DNA of 39,588 bases from a virus (lineage: Duplodnaviria > Heunggongvirae > Uroviricota > Caudoviricetes), in IMG/VR virus record IMGVR_UViG_2534681990_000031. One strand, given 5' to 3'. The notes under the pieces are model-generated. The model worked only from the letters and a program-made list of their open reading frames with translations, did not search any database and was not told the origin of the DNA. Position numbers and translations under genes: made by a program. Below are positions 1-32,368 of this stretch, in pieces (the stretch's first letter is position 1; the number at the start of each line of letters is the position of its first letter).

Positions 1-1554
1 TTATTTCAGATTCTTTCTAATTATTTTCCCCGAGCAATTACGTGGCAGATCTTTTCTGATCTCCAGATAAGAGGGCACTTTAAATTTCGCCATATTTTGT
101 TCGCAGAAGCGGAAAAATTCCTCTTCGCTCAATGTTTCACCTTCATTCAGCACCACAAATGCTTTGATGGCTTCATCGCGAATCGAATCTTTAATACCCA
201 CAACCACGATATCCTGAATTTTTGGATGGGTGGCGATGATATTTTCCAGCTCCACGCAGGAGACATTCTCGCCACCGCGTTTGATCATATTGCAGCGGCG
301 ATCGACGAAATAAAAAAAGCCCTCTTCGTCGCAGTATCCGGTATCGCCGGTATGTAGCCAGCCGTCGGCTTCCAGCACTTTCGCAGTGGCTTTCGGGTTG
401 AGAAAATACTCTTTGAAGATGGTTTTCCCTGGTACGCCTTTAATACAGATTTCACCGATCTCACCTGCCGGGAGCGGGCGATTGTGATCGTCGCGGATCT
501 CCGCTTCGTAGCAAAACCCCGCCCGACCAATCGACGGCCAGCGTCGTTTATCGCCAGGGCGATCGCCGATAATGCCCACAATGGTTTCCGTCATCCCATA
601 AGACGTCAGCAAGCGAACGCCGAAGCGTTCACAAAACGCATCTTTTTCCTGCTCCGACAAGTTGAGATAAAACATCACTTCCCGCAGGCGGTGTTGCCGA
701 TCGTTCGCTGAAGGCGGCTGCACCATCAACGTACGGATCATCATCGGAATACATTCGGTAATGGTGGCGCGGTACTTCTGCACCTGTCCCCAGAAGGCGC
801 GGGCGCTGTATTTCTCGACCAGCACAAAGGTGGCCCCGGCAGAAAACGCCGCCATCGCCGCAGTACACTGGCAATCGATATGAAACGCAGGCATTACCGT
901 CAGGTAGACGTCATCGTCACGCAGTGCACACTGCCAGGCGGAGTAATATCCAGCGAAGCGCAGGTTGTAATGGGTAATCACCACACCTTTCGGTCGGGAG
1001 GTGGTGCCGGAGGTGAAGAGAATTTCCGCCGTATCGTCAGTCAATAGCGGCGGTGCATAGCACAAGGTGGCAGGTTGTTGATTTTTCAGTTGAGTAAACG
1101 AACTCACGCCATCATCAGCGGGAAGTGCCACATCTGTCAGGCAAATGTGCCGCAATTGAGTGGCATCTTCCTGCTGAATCTGTTGATACATAGGATAGAA
1201 TTGCGCACTGGTCACCAGCAGGCACGCCTGGCTATTTTGCAGGATCCACGCGCTTTCCTCGCGTAACAGGCGGGCGTTAATCGGCACCATAATCGCGCCA
1301 ATTTTTGCCAGCCCGAACCAGCAAAAGATAAATTCCGGGCAGTTGTCGAGATGTAGTGCAACCTTGTCGCCTTTGCGAATCCCCAGCGTATAAAACAGGT
1401 TTGCCGTGCGGTTAATCTCCTGATTTAACTCAAGATAACTATACCGGTTAACGACTCCGCCGCTGGATTCACAAATCAGCGCCGTTTTATGACCGTAAAC
1501 GTCCGCCAGATCGTCCCACATTTGACGTAGATGTTGTCCGCCAATGATATCCAT
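1..1554 (-). CDS. caiC: crotonobetaine/carnitine-CoA ligase CaiC (host gene)
   Basis: Track ORF 1..1725(-); protein from [29 protein letters not shown] matches recalled E. coli CaiC; adenylate-forming motifs [10 protein letters not shown] and YGMTE; stop codon at window bases 1-3; in-frame ATG at 1569 (MDRGAM) is an alternative start. Confidence 0.9.
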
Positions 1555-1599
1555 TGCACCTCTATCCATTTTTGTTCGTTTGTTATTGGTATAGCGCGG

Positions 1600-1680
1600 C
1601 GATTTTTTTGATACCGATTTGCATTTCATTTGATACCGCTGAAAAACGCCGATACGCAACTTATTTGATACTAAATCGGC
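1600..1680. repeat. three direct TTTGATAC(C/T) repeats at phage right end, candidate transposase binding sites
   Basis: TTTGATACC near 1607 and 1629, TTTGATACT near 1664 (22 and 35 bp spacing); adjacent GAAAAACGC resembles the recalled Mu attR site core. Confidence 0.4.
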
Positions 1681-1717
1681 GCTTTTCTTTTGAGTTTTAG
1701 AATGAGTTTTTAAGCGC

Positions 1718-2455
1718 TCATTCACTCTCTTTCAAACCAGTTTTAACTGTTTGTGGTTTTGGGTAAGGCTGGACTTTGAATAGCTTTGTGTTGAGGCGTT
1801 TTCTGGCCCTCTTGTTCAGAAACCGGATGTAACGAAACTGTCGGAACTTATGCACACTGGCTCTGTCGATATTAGCCCTCAGATGTTCACCTCGTTGTCC
1901 GCCTCGTTTAATGGCATTCCTGCAAATCTCGTGATACCACTCGCCATCAAGTTCATAGAATGTTGATTCATGGCTGCCTACATAATCAAAATTGCTTGCC
2001 TGATACACGACACCAAGACAGCCACAACGCTCATCTGCAAACGACTGAACCCACTGTACCTGCGGATAAAGCTGCCTGATTAGCTTGAGCGCGTAACTGA
2101 TTGCCCTTGATTCGGAGTTTCTCGGCATACAGTCATGCATCCATAGCCGGTTAAGCTCCATATATTCTCGGTTCTGCGTACCCGTTACGACGCGTGCACC
2201 ACTGTTTGGGTTAAGGGCGTAACCCCATTGCATTACGCCAACAAGTTCCCGTTCTGAAAATATACCCAGATGAAGGTAGGAATTATTTACGAAACGGTGG
2301 CTGTAATGTTTATTGACGATAACCAGTCTGGCCAGCCAGCAACTTATTGTCTCAACCCGCAACTCACGGGAGCCATAACCAACGATATTGTCGTTATAGC
2401 GAATAAGTTCAGGCGTGCTGATGATACGGGATGTGACTTGCTTTCTGTTCCCCAC
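1718..2455 (-). CDS. mom: Mom-like DNA modification protein (anti-restriction adenine modification)
   Basis: Track ORF 245 aa; last gene before the phage right end; overlaps the 3' end of a Com-like zinc-finger ORF as in Mu; listed first codon is GTG so true start uncertain. Confidence 0.7.
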
Positions 2456-3803: not shown

Positions 3804-3838
3804 CCCGCCAGCCATATCATGACCGGCGGGATTTTTTT
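3804..3838 (+). terminator. GC stem (CCCGCC...GGCGGG) followed by T7 run, plus-strand terminator-like element overlapping esterase stop codon
   Basis: 6-bp stem with 15-nt loop then ATTTTTTTAT; T run is on the plus strand only; the loop is long for an intrinsic terminator. Confidence 0.3.
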
Positions 3839-5876
3839 ATTCTGTTACCGCTTTTTTCACTTCCACCACAATGCTGTCAATCAGCACCGGGTAAGTTGCA
3901 TTTTTTGTGATATCCGTTACGCGGAGTTTGTCCACCGGGAAAGTTCCTACTGGTGACTGCGTCAGGGTAAACGCGGCACCATCCTGACCATCAATAACCG
4001 GAATAACCTGAAGGCTGTTATTTCCTGCAAAACGGAAGGCCAGCGTATGCCATTCATTATCAAATGCACCAAAGGTTCCCAGTTTCTGGTTATTTGTTGC
4101 CACTTTTGCATTGTGGTACATCACATTCAGGTCTTTTGCGTCTGTCTGGATGTAGAACGATGCCAGCAGATTATTCCCTGCATCCCCTGTCAGGGTGACA
4201 CCCTGCGGCAGAGAGGAAACCGGCCAGTAAAGCCCCATGACATACTGGTTTGCCACCAGGTCGCCAGGTACTTTAAAACGACAACTGATTAAACCACCAT
4301 TTTTCAGCAGTTCAGCACCAGTACCGGCATCATGATCCAGATACCAAGATGATTTACCTGTTTCCTTGGTCAGTTTCATTGCCTTACCACCTGTGCCTCC
4401 TGCATCACTGATAATTTCAGCTTTACCGCCAGCCGGCTCCCAGCCCTGGGCTTTCAGATTTCCTTCTGACTCACTGACACGATAAGACAGCAGTGTTGTG
4501 GTTACTGCTTCAGTTTCTGAAGGTGACGGCACTGGTGCTTCAGTTTCAGAAGATGGAACATCGGCTTTTACTGTGGTTCGCCCCGCATGAGTCAGAACTG
4601 CCGTGGCCAGACGGTCGGAAATAATCCCACGACGTGCCCATGAACTGAAATGGCTGGCCCGGTCCGCAGATGTCCAGGTGGCGGCACTGTTACGCCACGT
4701 TGAGCCGTAATAACCAATGGATTCAATATCCGGGTCTTCTGCCGGATTGTTGGTGGGTACATTCGCGTCATTTTCATCTGTCATTAATGGAACGAAATGA
4801 ATGTTTTTATCTGTTTTGTTTTTGTAGCCGCCATAGATTGCCTGGTATGCCGGTTCATTTTTCTGTTTCCAGAAATACGTGGTATCGCCACAAATCCACG
4901 GAACGCCAGCAGCACTGCCACCGGTACACTGTTCCGCCTGTTCAGCCAGGTCTGCGCGGAATTTTTCCACCATCGCCAGAAACAGCGCGGAATGCTCCGT
5001 CGGCTTCGCATCAATATCAAACTCGCCCTGCATCCACACCACAGCAAGCAGGCGGTTTTTCGGGTTCTTCGCCAGTGCCGCTTTTGTCCGGCTGATTAAG
5101 TCCTTATACAGCGGCTTATCCACACCCCAGCGGGCTGAGTCCTCTGAAGCACCCGTGCTGTCACTGTACGTGCCGTCAGCACCCGCCGTGAATGCAGAAC
5201 CACCACGGCAGCAGGGAACCAGCAGAATCCCCGCATCTGCCGGAATAAACGGCAGCAGTTTTTTGGCAATGTGAAGCCCCTGACCCACGGTGCCATATTG
5301 CCCTTTAGCCACATCCGCTTTCGGGTGATTTTTTCCACTCATATCCTGCACATCATGCAGACAGTGGTCGGCCAGAATGATGTCGTTATACTGACAGGCT
5401 TTACCTCCCGGCGTGACTGTACTGCGACGGGCTAACTGCATAATACGCGGTTCGGGGCGGTCATATGTCTCCGGCAGTGGCAGACCTTCACCGTAAGCCA
5501 TACCGTTTGACTGACCAGCAAGAACCACCACGTAATACCAGGAAGGGGAGCTGGAAGCAGTTTCATTTCCTGACGGACGGGTATGTGTTTCAGCATTATC
5601 CCAGTCTGACGGTTCAGCAGTACCGGCAACATCAGCACTTAACGGAATGACCGCACCAATACCCGCTCCGGTAATTTCCACACTCGGATCACCGGATACT
5701 GGCCTTACCCACAGGCAATCCCGTGTATTAAAACTGATGAGACAGTCAGCAAATGTCATTCCTCCTTTTGTTTCGGCCGGAGGAAAGGGAGCCTCAAGAA
5801 ATGCCGCTGTACCACCGGAAACTTTAACAGTAAAGTTTCCGGGCATTGATGATAGTTGAACCCATTTGGACGTCAT
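3837..5876 (-). CDS. putative sialate O-acetylesterase-type SGNH/SASA hydrolase with C-terminal beta-rich (lectin-like) domain; NanS-p-like prophage cargo
   Basis: Track ORF 679 aa; VVVLAGQSNGMAYGEG (GQSN block I) and LLAVVWMQGEFD motifs typical of the SASA esterase family; S/T/P-rich linker PSSETEAPVPSPSETEA; sits between gin and com where Mu has no gene. Confidence 0.6.
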   Translation of the reverse strand: MTSKWVQLSSMPGNFTVKVSGGTAAFLEAPFPPAETKGGMTFADCLISFNTRDCLWVRPVSGDPSVEITGAGIGAVIPLSADVAGTAEPSDWDNAETHTRPSGNETASSSPSWYYVVVLAGQSNGMAYGEGLPLPETYDRPEPRIMQLARRSTVTPGGKACQYNDIILADHCLHDVQDMSGKNHPKADVAKGQYGTVGQGLHIAKKLLPFIPADAGILLVPCCRGGSAFTAGADGTYSDSTGASEDSARWGVDKPLYKDLISRTKAALAKNPKNRLLAVVWMQGEFDIDAKPTEHSALFLAMVEKFRADLAEQAEQCTGGSAAGVPWICGDTTYFWKQKNEPAYQAIYGGYKNKTDKNIHFVPLMTDENDANVPTNNPAEDPDIESIGYYGSTWRNSAATWTSADRASHFSSWARRGIISDRLATAVLTHAGRTTVKADVPSSETEAPVPSPSETEAVTTTLLSYRVSESEGNLKAQGWEPAGGKAEIISDAGGTGGKAMKLTKETGKSSWYLDHDAGTGAELLKNGGLISCRFKVPGDLVANQYVMGLYWPVSSLPQGVTLTGDAGNNLLASFYIQTDAKDLNVMYHNAKVATNNQKLGTFGAFDNEWHTLAFRFAGNNSLQVIPVIDGQDGAAFTLTQSPVGTFPVDKLRVTDITKNATYPVLIDSIVVEVKKAVTE

Positions 5877-6591: not shown

Positions 6592-6617
6592 TCCCTGAAA
6601 CCTCGGTTTACGGGATA
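6592..6617. other. gix-like recombination site (left crossover)
   Basis: AAACCTCGGTTTACGGGA resembles the recalled Mu gix core AAACCTCGGTTTACAGGAA; lies ~60 bp upstream of gin start; inverted-repeat homology with the tail-fibre gene begins here. Confidence 0.5.
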
Positions 6618-6961
6618 CTGTAAACAGGGCCGCGAATGCCCTGCCATCGAACGGAGCGGCTGTTGCAGCGAATAAACTCGCCACTCCAAGAAATATTAAT
6701 GGTGTCCCATTTGACGGAACGCAGGATATAAATATTACATCGGGGATGACGCAGTCTGTGGCTGACTCACGTTATGTTCAAAGCATTCGAAGAGGTTCAA
6801 GGTCAACGATTGGAATGCAATATAATATTTTTGAGGTTCCTGACGGATGCGTACTTACAGGGCTTGATGTCGCTGGTGATGGTAATGCAACGGTAACCGC
6901 ATATTATCGACCTGTTCAGTTTCTGATAGATGGTTCGTGGAAAACAGCTTCCAGCGCATAA
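6599..6961 (+). CDS. silent alternative tail-fibre C-terminal cassette (S'v-like), promoter-less and start-less in this orientation
   Basis: Open frame begins right after a TGA at the gix site; shares ~60 aa with the expressed fibre then a distinct 60-aa tip ...GCVLTGLDVAGDGNATVTAYYRPVQFLIDGSWKTASSA. Confidence 0.6.
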   Translation, partial: NLGLRDTVNRAANALPSNGAAVAANKLATPRNINGVPFDGTQDINITSGMTQSVADSRYVQSIRRGSRSTIGMQYNIFEVPDGCVLTGLDVAGDGNATVTAYYRPVQFLIDGSWKTASSA

Positions 6962-7596: not shown

Positions 7597-8508
7597 TTAC
7601 ACTGAACTTACCGTTCTCCAGGCATTATTAATATAAATCTGAACCGGGCGATAATAGACCCCACCGATATTGTCCGCAGACCGGGAGCCGGTTTCCTGCA
7701 CGTTAATTCCGGAAAGCATACAACCGGAAGGTGCGCTGTAATTCCATGACATTTCATTGCCTCCGGGTGAATGATAGCTCTGTGCTCCAAGCTGAACATT
7801 CTGTACATACCGGCCATCTGCGGTTGACTGCGTCATTCCTGACGTGATGTTGATATCCAGCGTTCCGTCAAAAGGAACACCATTAATATTTCTTGGGGTG
7901 GCGAGTCTGTTTGCTGCCACGGCGGTTCCACCCGATGGCAGGGCATCAGCAGCCTTATTTACCGTTTCCCGTAAACCGACGTTATCGATAAAAGCGCCTT
8001 TATCCGGAATGTCTGCGCCGTTCTGCTCCCTGCGCAGGTAACGGTTATCACCTTCGCTTTTGCTGTAAACATCCAGATTATTACGGGCGGTTCCCGCATT
8101 CTCCAGGTCGGCAAGGTTCTGATCCTTCGCCAGAGCATTAACGTCACCGGGACCAAGACTGTTTTTTGTGGCAAGCGCCCCAAGACCAAGATAACCACGG
8201 GCAAGACGCTGGGCTTCCGCACCGGCATCAGCAATTTCTTTCAGGTTGTTTTTCCGGGAAAAGGCATTCGCAGCGATAATGGCTTTAATGGACAGCGTAA
8301 GCTGGTTTAACTGCGCCTTATCCGGCTGAATACTGGCTTCAGCCAGAATATTCAGCAGTTCGGCCTGGAGAATATTCAGCCAGTCCTGACCAATCCAGCT
8401 GATACCTTTTTGTCCGTCACCTTCGGTAAACCAGGTGGTGGTATTACTCTGCGCCGGTGCCAGCGCAGGCATATTCGCCACGCCGGAATTATTATCAACA
8501 TGGAACAT
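7597..8508 (-). CDS. tail fibre protein (S-like), constant N-terminus plus currently expressed variable tip
   Basis: Start MFHVDNNSG (ATG overlapping stop of upstream gene as TAATG); Gly/Asn/Ala-rich fibre-like sequence; C-terminal 67 aa unique to this orientation; track ORF extends to 8562. Confidence 0.8.
   Translation of the reverse strand: MFHVDNNSGVANMPALAPAQSNTTTWFTEGDGQKGISWIGQDWLNILQAELLNILAEASIQPDKAQLNQLTLSIKAIIAANAFSRKNNLKEIADAGAEAQRLARGYLGLGALATKNSLGPGDVNALAKDQNLADLENAGTARNNLDVYSKSEGDNRYLRREQNGADIPDKGAFIDNVGLRETVNKAADALPSGGTAVAANRLATPRNINGVPFDGTLDINITSGMTQSTADGRYVQNVQLGAQSYHSPGGNEMSWNYSAPSGCMLSGINVQETGSRSADNIGGVYYRPVQIYINNAWRTVSSV
7966..7991. other. gix-like recombination site (right crossover, inside tail-fibre gene)
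   Basis: Minus-strand ATAACGTCGGTTTACGGGAAAC at codons for NVGLR; start of homology with left site. Confidence 0.45.
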
Positions 8509-27816: not shown

Positions 27817-28107
27817 TTACCCCCTTGCGCGTGGTTTCTTCACACCCGGAACGCAGGCCCGGCCTTCCGCCACATCCTGCCCACGACCGGTCAGTTCCGC
27901 GATGAAATAACCGTTAATCAGAACGCGTTTGCGCACCAGTCCCTGCTCGGCAAGCCAGGCAATGTGGGTGTGAACGGTGTCGCGGGACACGCGGTGGCCG
28001 TAATCATCCAGACAGTCCTGGAGCACGGATTCACCCAGTTCACCGTTGTAATCTGCCAGCGACCGCAGAATGACCAGACGCTGATCTTCAGTAATGAAAT
28101 CACTCAT
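27817..28107 (-). CDS. hypothetical protein (Mu gp26 position)
   Basis: 96 aa track ORF between lysis cassette and gp27-like gene. Confidence 0.5.
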   Translation of the reverse strand: MSDFITEDQRLVILRSLADYNGELGESVLQDCLDDYGHRVSRDTVHTHIAWLAEQGLVRKRVLINGYFIAELTGRGQDVAEGRACVPGVKKPRARG

Positions 28108-28412
28108 TGCGTTTTTTTCCTTACAGCCTGCTCCAGCAGCAGTTCGTTCTGATAGGAGACAGAGCGGAGCGTGGCGTTCGTGGTTTTCAGTTCACCCCGC
28201 AGGGTCACGATTTCCACATTCAGACGGTTGACCTCGGCTTCTGTCGGCAGTGACGACAGGCGGGTTTCCACCTTCTCAACGCGGTCGGAGAGTTTTTCAA
28301 AGGCCTCGCGGGGGACAAACGTTTTGCGCATCAGCGCCATGAATATCCCGCCAGCGGTTGCCGTCGCCGAAAGGATCGGCACAACATAATCTTTAACGAT
28401 GCTGACCCACAT
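28104..28412 (-). CDS. membrane protein, Mu gp25-like (candidate releasin, DUF2730-type)
   Basis: 102 aa; N-terminal TM helix then coiled coil; ATG at 28412 overlapping upstream stop. Confidence 0.5.
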   Translation of the reverse strand: MWVSIVKDYVVPILSATATAGGIFMALMRKTFVPREAFEKLSDRVEKVETRLSSLPTEAEVNRLNVEIVTLRGELKTTNATLRSVSYQNELLLEQAVRKKTQ

Positions 28413-28620
28413 TACGGGCCTCCATGATGTTCTGGCAGTTCACACAACGGATGGCATCAGGCACAGCAACAAGACGTGCGGCGGGGATCTCTCCACCACA
28501 GTCCGCGCAGACACGTCTGCCCGGCGTATCCACTGCCTGGCGCTTACGTGTCAGCCGGTTACAAAGGGCGCGTTCTGATCCCCGCTCCATCACAGCCTGA
28601 GCACGATCTGAATCATCCAT
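28393..28620 (-). CDS. TraR/DksA-family C4 zinc-finger protein
   Basis: 75 aa; CADCGGEIPAARL...IRCVNCQ two CxxC pairs with conserved spacing. Confidence 0.6.
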   Translation of the reverse strand: MDDSDRAQAVMERGSERALCNRLTRKRQAVDTPGRRVCADCGGEIPAARLVAVPDAIRCVNCQNIMEARNVGQHR

Positions 28621-28629
28621 ACCTTTTCC

Positions 28630-29001
28630 TTACTTCGTTTTTCCTGCCGGAACAGCAGGCGTTCCGGCCATATCAGTAAATTCATGTTGTCGCCGCGTCT
28701 CCAGACGACGAATACTGGCCTTGTCCACGTTGCAGTTCTTGATCACCGCCAGCAGTTGCAGGTTGTAAGTGACCGATGCCCCAAACGTGAACGGCTCCGG
28801 CGCAGGAGGGACTAGGCAGTCAGCCAGCCATTCAGCGGGGATCGGCACCGGCTTCACAGGCACGTATTTCACAGACGGCCCGGCGCACCCGATCAGCCAC
28901 ATCATCAGGAACAGGGGCAGAGGCCGCAGGCACTGCTGCCAGCGACCGGCGGACAACGCTCTGCTGCCCCTCGCTGTGCTGAATGTTCTGTTGTTTTTCA
29001 T
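28630..29001 (-). CDS. o-spanin (outer-membrane lipoprotein, Rz1-like), overlapped arrangement
   Basis: Internal ATG of track ORF 28630..29196 gives signal peptide with lipobox LIGC; Pro-rich mature part; GAGG RBS; start lies inside the i-spanin gene. Confidence 0.55.
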   Translation of the reverse strand: MKNNRTFSTARGSRALSAGRWQQCLRPLPLFLMMWLIGCAGPSVKYVPVKPVPIPAEWLADCLVPPAPEPFTFGASVTYNLQLLAVIKNCNVDKASIRRLETRRQHEFTDMAGTPAVPAGKTK

Positions 29002-29332
29002 TCGTGGCCGCCTCACTGATTTGTGAAATGAGTTGCAGGGTGTGCTGCTGATTTGCCAGCACCTGACGCGCCTCATCCCGCTCACGCACAAGCACCTGAT
29101 TATTGTCTTCAAGGCGCTGCGTCTTCTGGTGCATTCCCCATATCGCGGCAACCAGTACAGCGATAATCCCCAGCGCCGCCATGCACGCCCCGGCAATCAG
29201 GGCCGGTAAGGCATTATTCACCGCAGCCACAGGACACCCCGTAACAGCAGTACCGCACACAGCAGCGCTATCATGATCGGTCGCCAGAAGCGGTTCAGAC
29301 TTTCGGCAAATCGTAGCGACATAACCATTCAT
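28832..29332 (-). CDS. i-spanin (Rz-like, N-terminal TM then coiled coil)
   Basis: ATG at 29332 within track ORF 28832..29353 (listed first codon is TTG); TM segment MAALGIIAVLVAAIWGM then charged helical region. Confidence 0.6.
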   Translation of the reverse strand: MNGYVATICRKSEPLLATDHDSAAVCGTAVTGCPVAAVNNALPALIAGACMAALGIIAVLVAAIWGMHQKTQRLEDNNQVLVRERDEARQVLANQQHTLQLISQISEAATNEKQQNIQHSEGQQSVVRRSLAAVPAASAPVPDDVADRVRRAVCEIRACEAGADPR

Positions 29333-29795
29333 CCGCCGAACGGCGGGCCTCAAGGCCGGGGAGCTTCACCCCCTTTGAATAAATCCAGCGGATATACTGC
29401 TTACAGGACGCGGGCATCTGCCCGGCATTGATCAGGCGCAGAAGCGTGGAGTTGCGAAAGTTCGTTTCACCGGCCCAGAAGATCCACGAAGCCAGCGCCA
29501 CCGTCTGACCACGGGTAAGCGGCACCTGAACACGCCGATCAATGGCCGCAAAGGCCCATTTCATGTCCTTTTCCAGTAGTTCCAGGCATTCTTCATCCGT
29601 CAGGGTCATACCCGGTTTCACATCCGGGCCGGTATGGCCGTAACAGATGGTGGGTGTACCGGTGGGATCGATATACGTGGAGTTTTCTTTCCCTTCCCAG
29701 TAACCGGTGTAATGCGTGGCAATCGTGAACGTCCCGGCACCGGCCAGAACAAGGGCAATCAGCTTTTTACGCAGTGGTGCGGGGAGTTTTGGCAT
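29295..29795 (-). CDS. endolysin, T4/lambda-type lysozyme fold with N-terminal SAR-like domain
   Basis: YWEGKENSTYIDPTGTPTICYGHT catalytic motif; weakly hydrophobic N-terminus LIALVLAGAGTFTIATHY. Confidence 0.85.
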   Translation of the reverse strand: MPKLPAPLRKKLIALVLAGAGTFTIATHYTGYWEGKENSTYIDPTGTPTICYGHTGPDVKPGMTLTDEECLELLEKDMKWAFAAIDRRVQVPLTRGQTVALASWIFWAGETNFRNSTLLRLINAGQMPASCKQYIRWIYSKGVKLPGLEARRSADEWLCRYDLPKV

Positions 29796-29796
29796 T

Positions 29797-29834
29797 GTTA
29801 CGCTGTCTCATGATGTTCTCTGAGTCAGCGTAAC
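29797..29834 (-). promoter_or_regulatory. perfect 9-bp inverted repeat (GTTACGCTG / CAGCGTAAC, 20-bp spacer) abutting endolysin start codon
   Basis: Read directly in the mor/C-lys intergenic region; function unknown (activator site or 5'-UTR hairpin). Confidence 0.35.
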
Positions 29835-29866
29835 GGTGAAGGAAAGGCGGCAGGCTTTGCGGAATA

Positions 29867-30292
29867 TCAGAAAAGTGGCGGTTGTGTTCTTGCCAGATGC
29901 AGACGGCGCTGTTCACGTATGACGGTATAAATCTGGGTTTCTGACATCCGGTAATGGCGGCGAAGGGATTCAATTTTCTCGCCCCGGTCCCAGCGCGAAA
30001 ATATCTCATTGTTTCGCAGCTCGGCAAAGAGAGATTCCCCGACCGGCAGGTAATAACCCCGTCCGCCCATATAGGCTGCCTGAGCCGCAGCCACCTTGCG
30101 TGCCAGTTTGCCGGCCAGTACCGGCTCAATCCCCTGACGCTGAAGTTCTGCGCCGGTGACTTCAACCAGTTCTGACAGGGTCCGCGGCCAGTTCTTTTTG
30201 AGAACATCATCAGGGATGTCATCAAGGCGGTCGATAAGGGCGTGCAGTTGCTCACTGTCACCACCAAACATGCTCATCTGAGTTTCTGCCAT
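29867..30292 (-). CDS. Mor/C-family transcriptional activator
   Basis: 141 aa; C-terminal HTH ...RRHYRMSETQIYTVIREQRR resembles recalled Mu Mor C-terminus; only family member in window. Confidence 0.8.
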   Translation of the reverse strand: MAETQMSMFGGDSEQLHALIDRLDDIPDDVLKKNWPRTLSELVEVTGAELQRQGIEPVLAGKLARKVAAAQAAYMGGRGYYLPVGESLFAELRNNEIFSRWDRGEKIESLRRHYRMSETQIYTVIREQRRLHLARTQPPLF

Positions 30293-30320
30293 ATCAGCCT
30301 CCGGTTCTCGCGTTCCCGGT

Positions 30321-30355
30321 AAGTTTAAAATAAAAATCCCGCGTTGTGGCGGGAT
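30321..30355 (-). terminator. rho-independent terminator after gemA (stem ATCCCGC/GCGGGAT then TTTTATTTT on minus strand)
   Basis: 7-bp GC-rich stem, 6-nt loop, U-run on the coding (minus) strand 7 bp after gemA stop. Confidence 0.55.
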
Positions 30356-30361
30356 TTGGGG

Positions 30362-30871
30362 TTAACGGGGAAGTGATTTTTCATACTGCCTGCAAACGGC
30401 GTCATACCCCATCAGCGTGCGTTCGGGCATTCCCATCGCGGCCAGCATTTTGCGGCGGTGCCATCGCTTGAGACGCTCCAGCACATCTGAGGCCAGGGCG
30501 GGGTGTTGCTCCAGCCACTGCCAGTTTGCCACACCTTCGCCGCCGTTTTGCGCGGCCGTCTGCGATTTCACCCAGCGGTTAAGGGCGGTTTCCGCACCAT
30601 CAGAGATAAAGCCCTGCCGGTGCATCACCTTCCAGATGGCGCGAATTTTAGCGGTCACCGTACCCGGTTTTAAGGCCCGGTTAACCGGGTTCTGACGCAC
30701 TTTAAAACCGCGTTTTTTGAAAACATCCAGCACGCGGGATAACTCATCCGGTGACATATCCCGGCAGCTGGTTTTGCCGGTGACCGCCAGTAGTACGGAT
30801 GTGTAGGTTTCATCATCCAGGGCAAGCTCGCGTTTTGCCACATGAATGGCAGATATCAGTTTCCCTCTCAT
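30362..30871 (-). CDS. gemA: GemA-like protein (Mu gp16 family)
   Basis: 169 aa; MRGKLISAIHVAKRELALDDETYTSVLLAVTGKTSCRDMSPDEL matches recalled gp16/GemA N-terminal signature; synteny next to mor. Confidence 0.75.
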   Translation of the reverse strand: MRGKLISAIHVAKRELALDDETYTSVLLAVTGKTSCRDMSPDELSRVLDVFKKRGFKVRQNPVNRALKPGTVTAKIRAIWKVMHRQGFISDGAETALNRWVKSQTAAQNGGEGVANWQWLEQHPALASDVLERLKRWHRRKMLAAMGMPERTLMGYDAVCRQYEKSLPR

Positions 30872-31164
30872 GCTGTATCAACACTCCTGCGGATATGATA
30901 GGTATTATTTTCCCGATCGAGCTGAACCCGATACTCCGGAGGAATCACAAAAATATTAAAACCATCATCAGTTTTTATTCTTGAGTAGCATTCCCCCTTA
31001 TGATATCTGGCCAGTGCATTAATCAGAGAAGTCGCAGCCTGCCCAATCAGGTATTTTTTATGAAAAATACTGATAACTTTCCGGCACAGCCATCGTGTAA
31101 TGACGAATGCACCGAAAAAGGATGTGATATATAAATACCAGAACAACTGCGAACTACTGTCCAT
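30868..31164 (-). CDS. hypothetical membrane protein (98 aa, one N-terminal TM helix)
   Basis: Track ORF; LFWYLYITSFFGAFVITRWL TM segment; AT-rich codon usage; overlapping starts/stops with neighbours. Confidence 0.5.
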   Translation of the reverse strand: MDSSSQLFWYLYITSFFGAFVITRWLCRKVISIFHKKYLIGQAATSLINALARYHKGECYSRIKTDDGFNIFVIPPEYRVQLDRENNTYHIRRSVDTA

Positions 31165-31691: not shown

Positions 31692-32060
31692 TTAATCAGT
31701 TTCCAGTGCTTTGCTACGGGCAACAGCCTCACACTCAAAAAATACCGACTCCGGCACACGCTCCTTTAATTCACGAACAAGAAAATCATTAACGAGTTCA
31801 TGACGTCTTATATTTCTTTCCTTTTCCTCCTGGCGCAATACAGCAAGGCGGTATTCAACAGTCCGGCGTTGTTTCTGAAAGACAGCCAGTGCTTTTCTGG
31901 CAGAGTTACGCAATGTATCATCGCCACAGGGTTCGTATTCAAGCTGAAATTTAATCTCTTCAATGGTTTCTTTTATTTTTGCCAGCAAGCTAAGACAGTC
32001 GCTGATTGTCTTCAGTTTTTCATTATCAATATAACTTCTCACGCATTCACCTCCCGTCAT
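31692..32060 (-). CDS. hypothetical coiled-coil protein (~122 aa)
   Basis: Track ORF 31692..32084; start moved to internal ATG (MTGGECV) that abuts upstream stop. Confidence 0.45.
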   Translation of the reverse strand: MTGGECVRSYIDNEKLKTISDCLSLLAKIKETIEEIKFQLEYEPCGDDTLRNSARKALAVFQKQRRTVEYRLAVLRQEEKERNIRRHELVNDFLVRELKERVPESVFFECEAVARSKALETD

Positions 32061-32368
32061 TCCGGTAAAGCTGAAATATGGCACCAGTGCGTCACCTGTC
32101 CGTCCTCATCTTCAAGGCAGGCTCCGGTTTCTTCATCAATAAAAAAGCCTTCATACCCCATATGGCCGATGCGCAGTTCCTGTTGGTCACCATACTGAAC
32201 AATCAGCACGACAGCCTCCATATCAGGCGGGAAAGCATCATTCAGTGAATGCCAGGGATAACCGCGCAAATCCCCGAAATAAACACCGGTCAGCGTTCCG
32301 CCACAGACCGGCATTCCGACGGCACACACAAGGGGTTCATCTGATTCAACAAATAATGTCGTTATCAT
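32057..32368 (-). CDS. hypothetical strongly acidic protein (103 aa)
   Basis: Track ORF; ~20 Asp/Glu versus few basic residues; ATGA overlap with upstream gene. Confidence 0.5.
   Translation of the reverse strand: MITTLFVESDEPLVCAVGMPVCGGTLTGVYFGDLRGYPWHSLNDAFPPDMEAVVLIVQYGDQQELRIGHMGYEGFFIDEETGACLEDEDGQVTHWCHISALPE

Follow-up and report, generated by a model that had tools for sequence, protein, structure and literature searches.

The DNA analysed here, 39,588 nt in all and in the following called the window, represents a Mu-like prophage (Sp18 type) of E. coli O157 and is found unchanged in many O157 genomes. It contains the complete transposable-phage set (MuA, MuB, GemA, C, the Mu portal, F, Gin, Com and Mom). 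The Sp18 prophage has been rated intact (PMC2669165), and every ORF of the lysis cassette is intact as well. On the minus strand, positions 28104-29795 encode, one after the other, a lysozyme whose N-terminus is SAR-like, an i-spanin, an o-spanin in the +1 frame, a TraR/DksA zinc-finger protein and a 102-aa DUF2730 protein. The features of the region are as follows.

29867..30292, minus strand: activator of late transcription, Mor/C family (context; PF08765, 2.8e-32), immediately before the endolysin gene, like Mu C
29295..29795, minus strand: endolysin (lys), 166 aa, T4-lysozyme-type muramidase, Mu gp22 homologue (PF00959, 6e-37; PHROG 7, 8e-51)
29218..29328, minus strand: unannotated small hydrophobic ORF, 36 codons from ATG 29328 or 34 from ATG 29322; product MVMSLRFAESLNRFWRPIMIALLCAVLLLRGVLWLR
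28832..29230 (open frame 28832-29353), minus strand: i-spanin, 132 aa from the probable start GTG 29230, Mu gp23 homologue (PHROG 214 'Rz-like spanin', 6e-32)
28630..29001, minus strand: o-spanin, 123 aa, Mu gp23.1 homologue (PF23793 LysC, 6e-16; PHROG 3001, 4e-42)
28393..28620, minus strand: TraR/DksA-family protein of 75 aa with a C4 zinc finger, at the place of Mu gp24 (PF01258, 2.5e-12; TIGR02419; PHROG 54, 9e-20)
28104..28412, minus strand: 102-aa DUF2730 protein, homologous to the releasin of Mu (gp25) (PF10805, 7e-20; PHROG 736, 9e-32)
27817..28107, minus strand: gp26-like winged-helix protein (context; NF050184 VpaChn25_0724, 113.7 bits; PHROG 436, 1e-40)

The E-values of the cassette family matches are strong, and the matches are thus not due to chance. 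All elements named in the original prediction lie where it placed them, on the minus strand, and its reading of the region as a Mu-type lysis cassette agrees with homology, synteny and the membrane-segment scan and matches the Mu system (PMC9239132). The inventory and extent that it gave were incomplete: the small conserved ORF at 29218-29328 was overlooked, and the coupling of the cassette to the gp26, gp27 and terminase genes was not stated.

Gene content and context of the cassette

Each of the five cassette proteins has a homologue in Mu, encoded in the same order: gp22, gp23, gp23.1, gp24 and gp25, with 27-42% identity. The activator encoded upstream is closer to Mu C (39% identity, E 4e-35) than to Mu Mor (27%), and a terminator-like hairpin (30357-30334) separates its gene from gemA. 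At the other end, the cassette runs on, translationally coupled, into the packaging block, which the gp26-like gene opens without a break and which continues with gp27 (PF11985) and the gene of the large terminase. The DUF2730 gene overlaps the zinc-finger gene by 20 nt at its start, and its stop overlaps the start of the gp26-like gene (ATGA). All related Mu-like loci that were examined keep the order Mor/C, lys, spanins, zinc finger, DUF2730, gp26, gp27. In many O157 genomes, the cassette sequence is 100% identical; 230 of the 5426 complete E. coli genomes carry it. A scan of the genome collection with the endolysin as the query yielded one additional locus only, and a metagenome scan with the o-spanin alignment no further lineage. 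An Rfam search of the 39.6-kb window gave zero matches.

The i-spanin (27% identity to Mu gp23, BLASTP E 4e-7) has an N-terminal transmembrane domain (TMD; hydrophobicity -2.5) and a helical periplasmic domain. Its start is called differently in different RefSeq genomes. Most likely, the true start is GTG 29230, because ACGGGG is found 6 nt upstream, because Citrobacter-type relatives have an ATG at the same site, and because the codon-position pattern of substitutions changes frame there. The alternatives TTG 29353, ATG 29332 and GTG 29260 (the RefSeq call) were rejected, since the Citrobacter-type relatives have no upstream ATG and the substitutions in that frame follow a non-coding pattern (22/13/7 for the three codon positions).

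As the original prediction had it, the o-spanin gene starts within the i-spanin gene in another frame and encodes a lipobox, LIGC. The gene lies in the +1 frame, overlaps the last 170 nt of the i-spanin gene and extends 202 nt beyond it, so that the pair has the properties of an overlapped two-component spanin. The protein (42% identity to Mu gp23.1, E 1e-14) has a lipoprotein signal with the lipobox L-I-G-C39, Ala at +2, and a Pro-rich mature part. Its ATG is preceded by a GAGG Shine-Dalgarno sequence 9 nt upstream, and the MKNN start and Cys39 are kept in five lineages. The RefSeq start (28872) is wrong: it lies downstream of the lipobox Cys and disregards the conserved MKNN start.

The zinc-finger protein scores above the family cut-offs for both PF01258 (47 bits, cut-off 24.9) and TIGR02419 (78.5 bits, cut-off 59.7). 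It has an acidic N-terminus (MDDSD) and the motif C38xxC41-x17-C59xxC62; Mu gp24 has the same CxxC...CxxC layout, with about 38% identity over the zinc-finger core. Its gene is kept directly upstream of the DUF2730 gene in Shewanella and Vibrio Mu-like phages. The predicted membership in the TraR/DksA family thus stands, but a role in lysis does not follow from it, and the protein belongs to the cassette by position only. Most likely, it has no part in lysis and regulates RNA polymerase by binding to it, as TraR does. A function as a holin substitute is unlikely, because Mu gp22 and gp25 suffice for lysis from a plasmid and because TraR homologues act on RNA polymerase.

A small ORF between the endolysin and i-spanin genes

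The one new item of the cassette is a small conserved putative membrane-peptide gene that has never been annotated before. It occupies the space between the genes for endolysin and i-spanin, overlapping the 3' end of the former and the start of the latter, and its CTG-CGG-GGN codons (LRG) double as the i-spanin Shine-Dalgarno sequence. The predicted product has a single hydrophobic segment, which at -1.5 lies between the i-spanin TMD (-2.5) and the SAR domain of the endolysin (+2.1). Its own Shine-Dalgarno sequence, GGAT/GGAG 7 nt upstream, is weak.

The ORF borders are unchanged in 29 of 29 distinct close relatives, and the ORF is present in six lineages of related prophages. An HMM built without the respective lineages matched the loci L167 (1e-11), L285 (2e-17) and L287 (5e-14). 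Substitutions are distributed over the codon positions as 13/7/22 in the frame of the small ORF versus 22/13/7 in the i-spanin frame, and pN/pS is 0.68 in the former versus 2.78 in the latter. Between lineages, the corresponding counts are 55/28/67, and no indels are found between the WR and LRG motifs. Lineages devoid of the small ORF also lack the spacer between lys and the i-spanin gene. Mu and two related lineages have the same cassette, without a counterpart of the ORF.

The peptide is absent, by exact look-up, from a collection of 15 billion proteins, and it has no Pfam, NCBIfam or PHROG match. A TBLASTN search of the phage collection returned only two Stx-phage records, both with an inserted copy of this Mu-like phage. 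A relationship to Mu gp20 was considered and dismissed, as there is no sequence similarity. Production by frameshifting from lys, suggested by a lys fusion in the locus L030, was rejected as well: the fusion is due to one extra A in an A-run, is found in a single contig, and lacks a slippery heptamer, and was therefore treated as an error or mutation.

Endolysin release and the question of a holin

Holin-free, releasin-dependent lysis was demonstrated experimentally for Mu in 2022 (Chamblee et al., mBio, PMC9239132). The endolysin of the present phage is 39% identical to Mu gp22 (E 9e-35) and has the catalytic motif E34-x8-D43-x5-T49. Its N-terminus, MPKLPAPLRKK, contains the basic residues K3, R9, K10 and K11. 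Residues 12-33 are uncharged, and 11 of these 22 residues are Ala, Gly, Ser or Thr. The N-terminal stretch is of marginal hydrophobicity (sum +2.1), similar to Mu gp22, and by composition alone it qualifies as a SAR domain, located directly ahead of the catalytic domain. The SAR-like character of the N-terminus was thus correctly recognized in the original prediction. R9-K10-K11 immediately precede the stretch and are kept in the Citrobacter-type lineage; in Mu gp22, the adjacent basic residues K6 and K7 confer releasin dependence (PMC9239132). By homology to the Mu enzyme, for which the experiments were done, the endolysin is expected to behave as a SAR protein.

A putative signal peptidase site, T-I-A↓T, follows the hydrophobic stretch, and as such would count against a Mu-like mode of action. 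The N-terminus could then be an ordinary cleavable Sec signal peptide, and the endolysin a soluble enzyme under some other control, with neither SAR release nor a releasin. In silico, SAR domains and signal peptides are not reliably separable, and the layout of n, h and c regions (MPKLPAPLRKK / LIALVLAGAG / TFTIA↓T), with small residues at -1 and -3, would fit. Nevertheless, a cleavable signal peptide appears very improbable. The homologous Mu gp22 is a proven SAR endolysin, the release of which needs gp25 or a pinholin (PMC9239132). The Ala/Gly/Thr-rich composition and the short distance to the catalytic Glu34 are as in SAR endolysins of the R21/gp22 type, and the putative cleavage motif varies in related lineages (TVGIATS, GIGVLTE, ALALAAC). 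Moreover, an active lysozyme that is secreted constitutively would kill the host once late transcription starts.

The DUF2730 protein matches PF10805 over residues 6-97 with 71.4 bits (cut-off 24.9). It is 34% identical to Mu gp25 (E 5e-18), the matched Mu record is annotated as 'releasin', and by this similarity it belongs to 'type I' in the classification of PMC9239132. A single, weakly hydrophobic TMD at the N-terminus (residues 9-28) is followed by an R29-K30 junction. The C-terminal helices show a heptad pattern, with hydrophobic residues in 75% of the a/d positions. The original prediction of a single-TMD coiled-coil protein in the place of Mu gp25 is borne out by these data. An AF2 model, used solely for helix boundaries, has helices at residues 2-28, 35-52 and 58-101 (single-sequence model, pLDDT 63, low confidence). 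The gene is the fourth annotated one after lys, or the fifth if the small ORF is counted, and thus lies within the distance of at most five genes that belongs to the definition of the system.

The cytoplasmic domain of the protein, with 11 acidic and 14 basic residues, is net basic, unlike that of the Mu releasin, which is described as anionic. It contains no His, and Tyr87 is found in the O157 lineage where most relatives have His. Across the family, position 87 is H, R or K (Y in the O157 lineage), and Tyr87 need therefore not be disabling. The lack of His in the domain, and the choice of H, R, K or Y at the most conserved His position, argue against a protease model of releasin action. The identity to Mu gp25 of only 34%, the net basic cytoplasmic domain and Tyr87 are among the observations that count against the cassette working as in Mu.

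Some Mu-like phages combine a DUF2730 protein with a soluble endolysin, and one of them has a gene for a holin-like protein with two TMDs (PMC9239132 and the loci examined here). This likewise counts against Mu-like working and suggests that the role of the family may not always be SAR release. It is conceivable, though rather far-fetched, that the DUF2730 protein is not a lysis factor at all but works with the packaging and head genes to which its gene is coupled, and that the SAR endolysin is released spontaneously. The zinc-finger, DUF2730, gp26, gp27 and terminase genes stay together as a conserved block in Mu-like phages with endolysins of any type, soluble enzymes included (PMC9239132), the start and stop overlaps tie the gene to gp26, and Tyr takes the place of the commonly conserved His87. 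However, deletion of gene 25 in Mu abolishes timely lysis, and gp22 and gp25 together are enough for lysis (PMC9239132). The endolysin here retains the pair of basic residues to which gp22 owes its dependence on gp25, and with H, R or K in the family at position 87, a Tyr is not necessarily disabling.

Among all plausible genes of the 39.6-kb window, which ends short of the prophage left end beyond transposase A, only the tape measure gene encodes a protein with two or more hydrophobic segments. Cassette and early-region proteins have no match to holin families in Pfam, PHROGs or NCBIfam. A canonical holin elsewhere in the phage, which by its own terms would contradict the original prediction, was thus found in the window neither by the segment scan nor by these family searches. 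There are two single-TMD candidates, the small ORF product (29218-29328) and a 98-aa early protein (30868-31164). The claim that there is no classical holin therefore stands for multi-TMD proteins other than the tape measure, but the label 'holin-less' has to be qualified by the small hydrophobic ORF that had been missed, and cannot be proven from sequence alone.

The small peptide does not resemble the members of holin families, as it has 34-36 residues instead of about 60-220, no charged C-terminal tail, and an end inside the hydrophobic segment. It may still act in a holin-like manner. The cassette would then not be holin-free, and the peptide would be a minimal holin, a pinholin, a depolarising peptide or a regulator that sets endolysin release, with or without the DUF2730 protein. 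The gene lies between lys and the spanin genes of a late operon, which is the usual place of a holin or antiholin, and its product has a hydrophobic segment as strong as that of a true TMD (-1.5). It is found in six lineages with a coding-type substitution pattern, the spacer is restricted to the lineages that have it, and the small single-TMD accessory lysis factor Lcc6 of phage LambdaSo provides a precedent. We nevertheless consider this unlikely, as the peptide is far below the size of any known holin, without a charged tail or family match, and as Mu and two related lineages do with the cassette without it. The small TMD proteins gp19 and gp20 of Mu have no holin activity (PMC9239132), the conservation of LRG (CTG CGG GGN) is partly explicable by the i-spanin Shine-Dalgarno sequence, and the ORF, with its weak Shine-Dalgarno sequence, is a prediction from the sequence. 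It is less likely still that the 98-aa early protein (30868-31164) is the actor.

The features that define the Mu system are all found here: SAR-type composition, at least two adjacent basic residues, the EDT triad, a DUF2730 TMD with R-K, and the location of this gene no more than five genes from lys. We therefore favor, with a probability of roughly 0.78, the view that this is the lysis cassette in the late operon of a transposable Mu-like prophage (Sp18 type) and that its mode of action is that of Mu gp22-gp25. As in Mu, the endolysin would show SAR behaviour and depend on the releasin, and holin activity would be lacking. The C-like activator would turn on the late promoter upstream of lys. 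The endolysin would be exported by Sec and kept inactive in the inner membrane by its weakly hydrophobic N-terminal SAR domain, with R9-K10-K11 on the cytoplasmic side locking it in the membrane. The DUF2730 protein would be the releasin, in N-out/C-in orientation with a helical cytoplasmic domain, and the i-spanin/o-spanin complex would afterwards disrupt the outer membrane. No holin would be involved. The TraR-like zinc finger would, most likely, reprogram the host RNA polymerase, outside the lysis mechanism.

The extra conserved membrane-peptide ORF is a further observation that counts against strictly Mu-like working. Tentatively, the peptide might be an additional lysis component of the releasin type, i.e. 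a timer, an anti-releasin or a membrane-active trigger. It is a concrete and easily testable candidate for lysis timing without a holin in one clade. For the public annotation, the o-spanin start after the lipobox, the inconsistent i-spanin starts and the missing small gene are corrected.

Comparison with known lysis systems

In pinholin/SAR systems (S21/R21 of phage 21, Lyz of P1), a muramidase of the same fold has a weakly hydrophobic N-terminal membrane anchor as well. A lambdoid relative of the present endolysin with 38% identity (L042) has a two-TMD pinholin-like gene upstream. In contrast to these systems, there is no two-TMD pinholin gene beside lys or elsewhere in the window, and a DUF2730 gene is found instead. 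TraR of the F plasmid and lambda Orf73 (PMC9239242) are, like the present 75-aa protein above the TIGR02419 TraR-family cut-off, small C4 zinc-finger proteins with an acidic N-terminus. What sets Mu-like phages apart is the location of the gene in a late operon, between spanin and DUF2730 genes.

Lcc6 of Shewanella phage LambdaSo, a protein of 65 aa with a single TMD, works together with a pinholin, and its gene is remote from the lysis genes (bioRxiv 10.1101/2024.01.23.576932). Lcc6 (by description) and Mu gp20 (39 aa) resemble the product of the small ORF in being very small, phage-encoded and equipped with one TMD. In both gp20 and the small ORF product, a short basic N-terminus is followed by a C-terminal hydrophobic segment. 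However, gp20 is the product of a middle gene without lysis phenotype and without sequence similarity, whereas the small ORF is part of the late lysis operon.

The closest likeness is to Mu, where the system is experimentally established. Genes 22-23-23.1-24-25 have the same order downstream of a C-type activator, with identities of 39, 27, 42, about 38 (zinc-finger core) and 34%, respectively. Shared are the SAR-type endolysin with its EDT triad and with basic residues ahead of the SAR domain, the overlapped spanins, the DUF2730 N-terminal TMD with an R-K or R-R junction, the gp26, gp27 and terminase genes that come next, and the lack of a multi-TMD holin. A 2026 PNAS paper on Mu C contains nothing about gp24 or gp25. 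The differences are in the details. The SAR domain is rich in Ala and Thr here, whereas gp22 has a Gly-run, and the basic residues number four, as against three in gp22. Compared with gp25, the cytoplasmic domain of the DUF2730 protein is net basic and devoid of His. The middle operon genes mor, 18, 19 and 20 of Mu are without counterpart between gemA and the C-like gene, and the window thus lacks equivalents of gp19 and gp20, the other two membrane proteins of Mu. In Mu, gene 23 overlaps gene 22, whereas an extra ORF of 34-36 codons is placed between lys and the i-spanin gene here.

Since releasin-dependent lysis of Mu had already been demonstrated, the cassette is largely known biology. The Mu arrangement is widespread, and as a divergent copy of it, the version present in the 230 E. 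coli genomes adds little beyond that. It does indicate that the features singled out by the Mu work, namely a pair of basic residues ahead of the SAR domain and R-K behind the releasin TMD, are kept at 34-39% identity. If the small peptide does take part in lysis, the 'holin-less' Mu-like phages of this clade would control endolysin release by a two-part membrane system that is lacking in Mu.

Prophage context and the lysis cassette

Nearly all genes of the window lie on the minus strand, and the matches are those of a Mu-like transposable phage: transposase A (PF09299, PF02316), transposase B (PF09077), GemA, a Mor/C-family activator, a Mu-type portal, protein F, the Gin invertase, Com and Mom. 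A 2.5-kb stretch around the cassette matches many E. coli O157:H7 chromosomes at 100% identity, and 230 of 5426 complete E. coli genomes contain it. Two Stx-phage records label the cassette-bearing region 'inserted bacteriophage Mu-like phage'. The prophage corresponds to the Sp18 type, which has been judged intact and Mu-like (PMC2669165).

All elements of the holin-less lysis cassette that the original prediction had placed at 28104-29795 are present, and a further small ORF lies among them:

29795-29295, minus strand: endolysin (lys), 166 aa; PF00959 at 6e-37, PHROG 7 'endolysin'
29328-29218, minus strand: unannotated small ORF, 36 codons in another frame, second ATG at 29322; MVMSLRFAESLNRFWRPIMIALLCAVLLLRGVLWLR
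29353-28832, minus strand: i-spanin ORF; PHROG 214 at 6e-32
29001-28630, minus strand: o-spanin (LysC); PF23793, PHROG 3001 at 4e-42
28620-28393, minus strand: TraR/DksA C4 zinc finger, 75 aa; TIGR02419, 78.5 bits against a cut-off of 59.7
28412-28104, minus strand: DUF2730 protein, 102 aa; PF10805, 71.4 bits against a cut-off of 24.9

The zinc-finger and DUF2730 genes overlap by 20 nt, the DUF2730 and gp26-like genes share an ATGA overlap, and the cassette genes continue without break into the gp27 and large terminase genes. On the other side, the region 29796-30362 (minus strand) has a single Mor/C-family gene, the product of which is nearer to Mu C (39% identity, E 4e-35) than to Mu Mor (27%). 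It directly follows a strong terminator-like hairpin (30357-30334) that separates it from gemA.

Further away, an AMP-binding-enzyme ORF (1-1725, minus strand, 574 aa) runs off the left edge of the window and shares 8 nt with the end of mom, and a gene between com/mom and gin (3837-5876, minus strand) encodes a protein of 679 aa that combines DUF6645 with a sialate O-acetylesterase (SASA) domain. Both are in a stretch of reduced G+C and resemble cargo or flanking genes. Inverted repeats (6599-6780 and 7802-7983; 182 nt, 79% complementary) bracket about 1 kb, the invertible host-range segment, beside the gin invertase gene.

Spanin start sites and a small ORF

The only new points are corrections to the annotated o-spanin and i-spanin starts and a candidate gene for a small membrane peptide. 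As predicted, the o-spanin gene begins inside the 3' part of the i-spanin gene in another frame (+1), overlapping its last 170 nt. Its ATG has GAGG nine bases upstream, the lipobox is L-I-G-C39 with Ala at +2, and five lineages share both the MKNN start and the Cys. The RefSeq start at 28872 was rejected, since it lies downstream of the lipobox Cys, leaving the annotated protein without a signal peptide, and comparative data favour the ATG at 29001. The RefSeq i-spanin start takes three differing positions among genomes (L001, L003-L006). For this gene the comparisons favour GTG 29230, which sits 5-9 nt downstream of a conserved GCGGGG/ACGGGG and is ATG in Citrobacter-type relatives.

The small ORF lies between the lys stop at 29295 and the i-spanin membrane anchor, and is absent from the RefSeq annotation. 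All 29 distinct E. coli and Citrobacter-type sequences have it open, with identical start and stop. In the 64 nt covered by no other gene, its own frame shows 13/7/22 substitutions by codon position and a pN/pS of 0.68, the i-spanin frame 22/13/7 and 2.78. An HMM built from three lineages recovered three more, namely L167 (MAMYVRLAESRLSQYWRVVTLGLLVFVLVLRGVLWLG, 1e-11), the Serratia-type L285 (2e-17) and L287/L288 (5e-14, GTG start), and the ORF is kept in six lineages in all. Between lineages, substitutions by codon position are 55/28/67, and the conserved W-R stands 14 codons from L-R-G in all four lineages that were compared. Lineages without the ORF (Mu, L072/73, L164-166) also lack the spacer, and in them the lys stop falls within the i-spanin gene. 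By a crude scale of membrane insertion, the hydrophobic segment scores -1.5, like a true membrane anchor.

Several points call for caution. The L-R-G codons are the i-spanin Shine-Dalgarno sequence, so that part of the ORF's conservation is regulatory, and the MVM start is forced by the endolysin motif E-W-L-C. Only a weak Shine-Dalgarno sequence precedes the ORF itself, the exact peptide does not occur in a 15-billion-protein collection, and neither a protein family nor Mu gp20 matched it. Overall, it is quite likely that the small ORF is a real gene; that its peptide takes part in lysis appears doubtful. Lcc6 of LambdaSo (bioRxiv 10.1101/2024.01.23.576932) is an earlier example of a small lysis factor with a single TMD that had not been expected. 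In one relative, an IMG/VR contig (L030, 3001-3579), the CCGAAAG run at the lys 3' end has one A more, which joins the endolysin and the hydrophobic part of the small ORF in one continuous frame; a sequencing error or a mutation is the probable cause.

Membrane proteins of the window

The endolysin starts with MPKLPAPLRKK, followed by LIALVLAGAGTFTIATHYTGYW: four basic residues precede 22 uncharged ones, 11 of which are Ala, Gly, Ser or Thr, and the catalytic motif E34-x8-D43-x5-T49 is C-terminal to this stretch. The segment scores a marginal +2.1, similar to that of Mu gp22 (+4.5), and the i-spanin anchor scores -2.5. Composition, basic residues, marginal hydrophobicity and homology to Mu gp22 fit the proposed SAR-like N-terminus. 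T-I-A|T is a possible cleavage site, which is not kept in related lineages.

The predicted single-TM coiled-coil protein at the position of Mu gp25 is present, with a PF10805 match, 34% identity to gp25 and a heptad pattern (a/d positions 75% hydrophobic across six heptads). In a low-confidence AF2 model, helices span residues 35-52 and 58-101. The only hydrophobic segment is N-terminal (residues 9-28, 28329-28388, YVVPILSATATAGGIFMALM) and is followed by R-K. Half of it is Ala, Thr, Gly or Ser, and with its marginal score of +2.6 it is much like a SAR domain; the Mu gp25 segment also scores as marginal. This makeup would be in keeping with helix-helix contact between the segment and the SAR domain. 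When 1.84 billion cluster representatives were searched with a profile, 165 relatives were found at E <= 0.001, and the window protein has all conserved features of the family: TMD, basic junction, L-P-T/S, L-R-G-D/E and L-L-L-E. Codon 87 (28152-28154) encodes Tyr in the O157-type cluster only, and His in Mu gp25 and most close relatives. Among 40 family sequences read, most have His or Arg/Lys here and a few have Asn, Gln or Tyr, so that the change from His to Tyr87 may be tolerated. A serine-protease model for the releasin was raised and itself doubted in the Mu paper (PMC9239132); the variable position 87 and the His-free, net basic cytoplasmic domain argue against it.

All plausible gene products across the window were scanned for uncharged hydrophobic stretches, and no protein has at least two such segments except the tape measure, in agreement with the predicted lack of a classical multi-TM holin; the region beyond transposase A lies outside the window. 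Single segments occur in the SAR endolysin, i-spanin, o-spanin (signal), DUF2730 protein and a 98-aa early protein, and a weak one in the product of 32057-32368; none of these has a holin-family match in Pfam, PHROG or NCBIfam. The 98-aa protein (30868-31164, minus strand; PHROG 17269), with one N-terminal segment, is the only other clear single-TMD protein outside the cassette. In Pasteurella phage AFS-2018a (L047), a Mu-like phage that bears DUF2730 and a soluble amidase, a 75-aa two-TMD holin-like gene (1770-1997) comes directly after that of the endolysin; DUF2730 and a candidate holin can thus occur together.

Comparison with phage Mu

Gene order is the same in Mu (AF083977): C, the SAR endolysin gp22, gp23 (i-spanin), gp23.1 (o-spanin), gp24, gp25 (releasin), gp26 (winged-helix) and gp27 (small terminase).

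Similarity of the cassette proteins to Mu proteins
Endolysin and gp22: 39% identity, E 9e-35
i-Spanin and gp23: 27% identity, E 4e-7
o-Spanin and gp23.1: 42% identity, E 1e-14
Zinc finger and gp24: weak match, CxxC...CxxC core, E 0.011
DUF2730 protein and gp25: 34% identity, E 5e-18

Counterparts of Mu mor, 18, 19 and 20 are absent from the window, which, for lack of gp19 (four TMDs) and gp20 (one TMD), encodes fewer membrane proteins than Mu.

The zinc finger, classed as TraR/DksA-type in the original prediction, scores above the TraR-family TIGR02419 cut-off and has the cysteine layout of Mu gp24. In this phage, in Mu and in Shewanella and Vibrio Mu-like phages, the DUF2730 gene immediately follows the zinc-finger gene, which belongs to the 'cassette' by position. 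Since Mu gp22 and gp25 lyse cells without gp24 (PMC9239132), and TraR homologues, including a lambda protein, are reported to reprogram RNA polymerase directly (PMC9239242), the role of the zinc finger is most likely transcriptional, not lytic.

Mu gp22 is a SAR endolysin, and Mu has no holin: gp19, gp20 and gp25 give no depolarisation-triggered lethality, and DNP delays lysis. Timely release of gp22 needs gp25, the two are enough for lysis, and K6 and K7 of gp22 confer gp25 dependence. The TMD of DUF2730 proteins is N-out/C-in and has an RR/RK junction, and in transposable phages their genes are no further than five genes from that of the endolysin (all PMC9239132). Gene content, order, overlaps, motifs, homology and the lack of multi-TMD proteins are observed here directly. 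By analogy with the Mu experiments, the endolysin would be exported by Sec, tethered to the membrane and locked by R9-K10-K11, the DUF2730 protein would promote its release, the spanin complex would disrupt the outer membrane, and no holin would be involved. Every sequence-level feature of the Mu releasin-type system is found in the cassette, which supports its earlier interpretation as a lysis system of this type, which is known biology.
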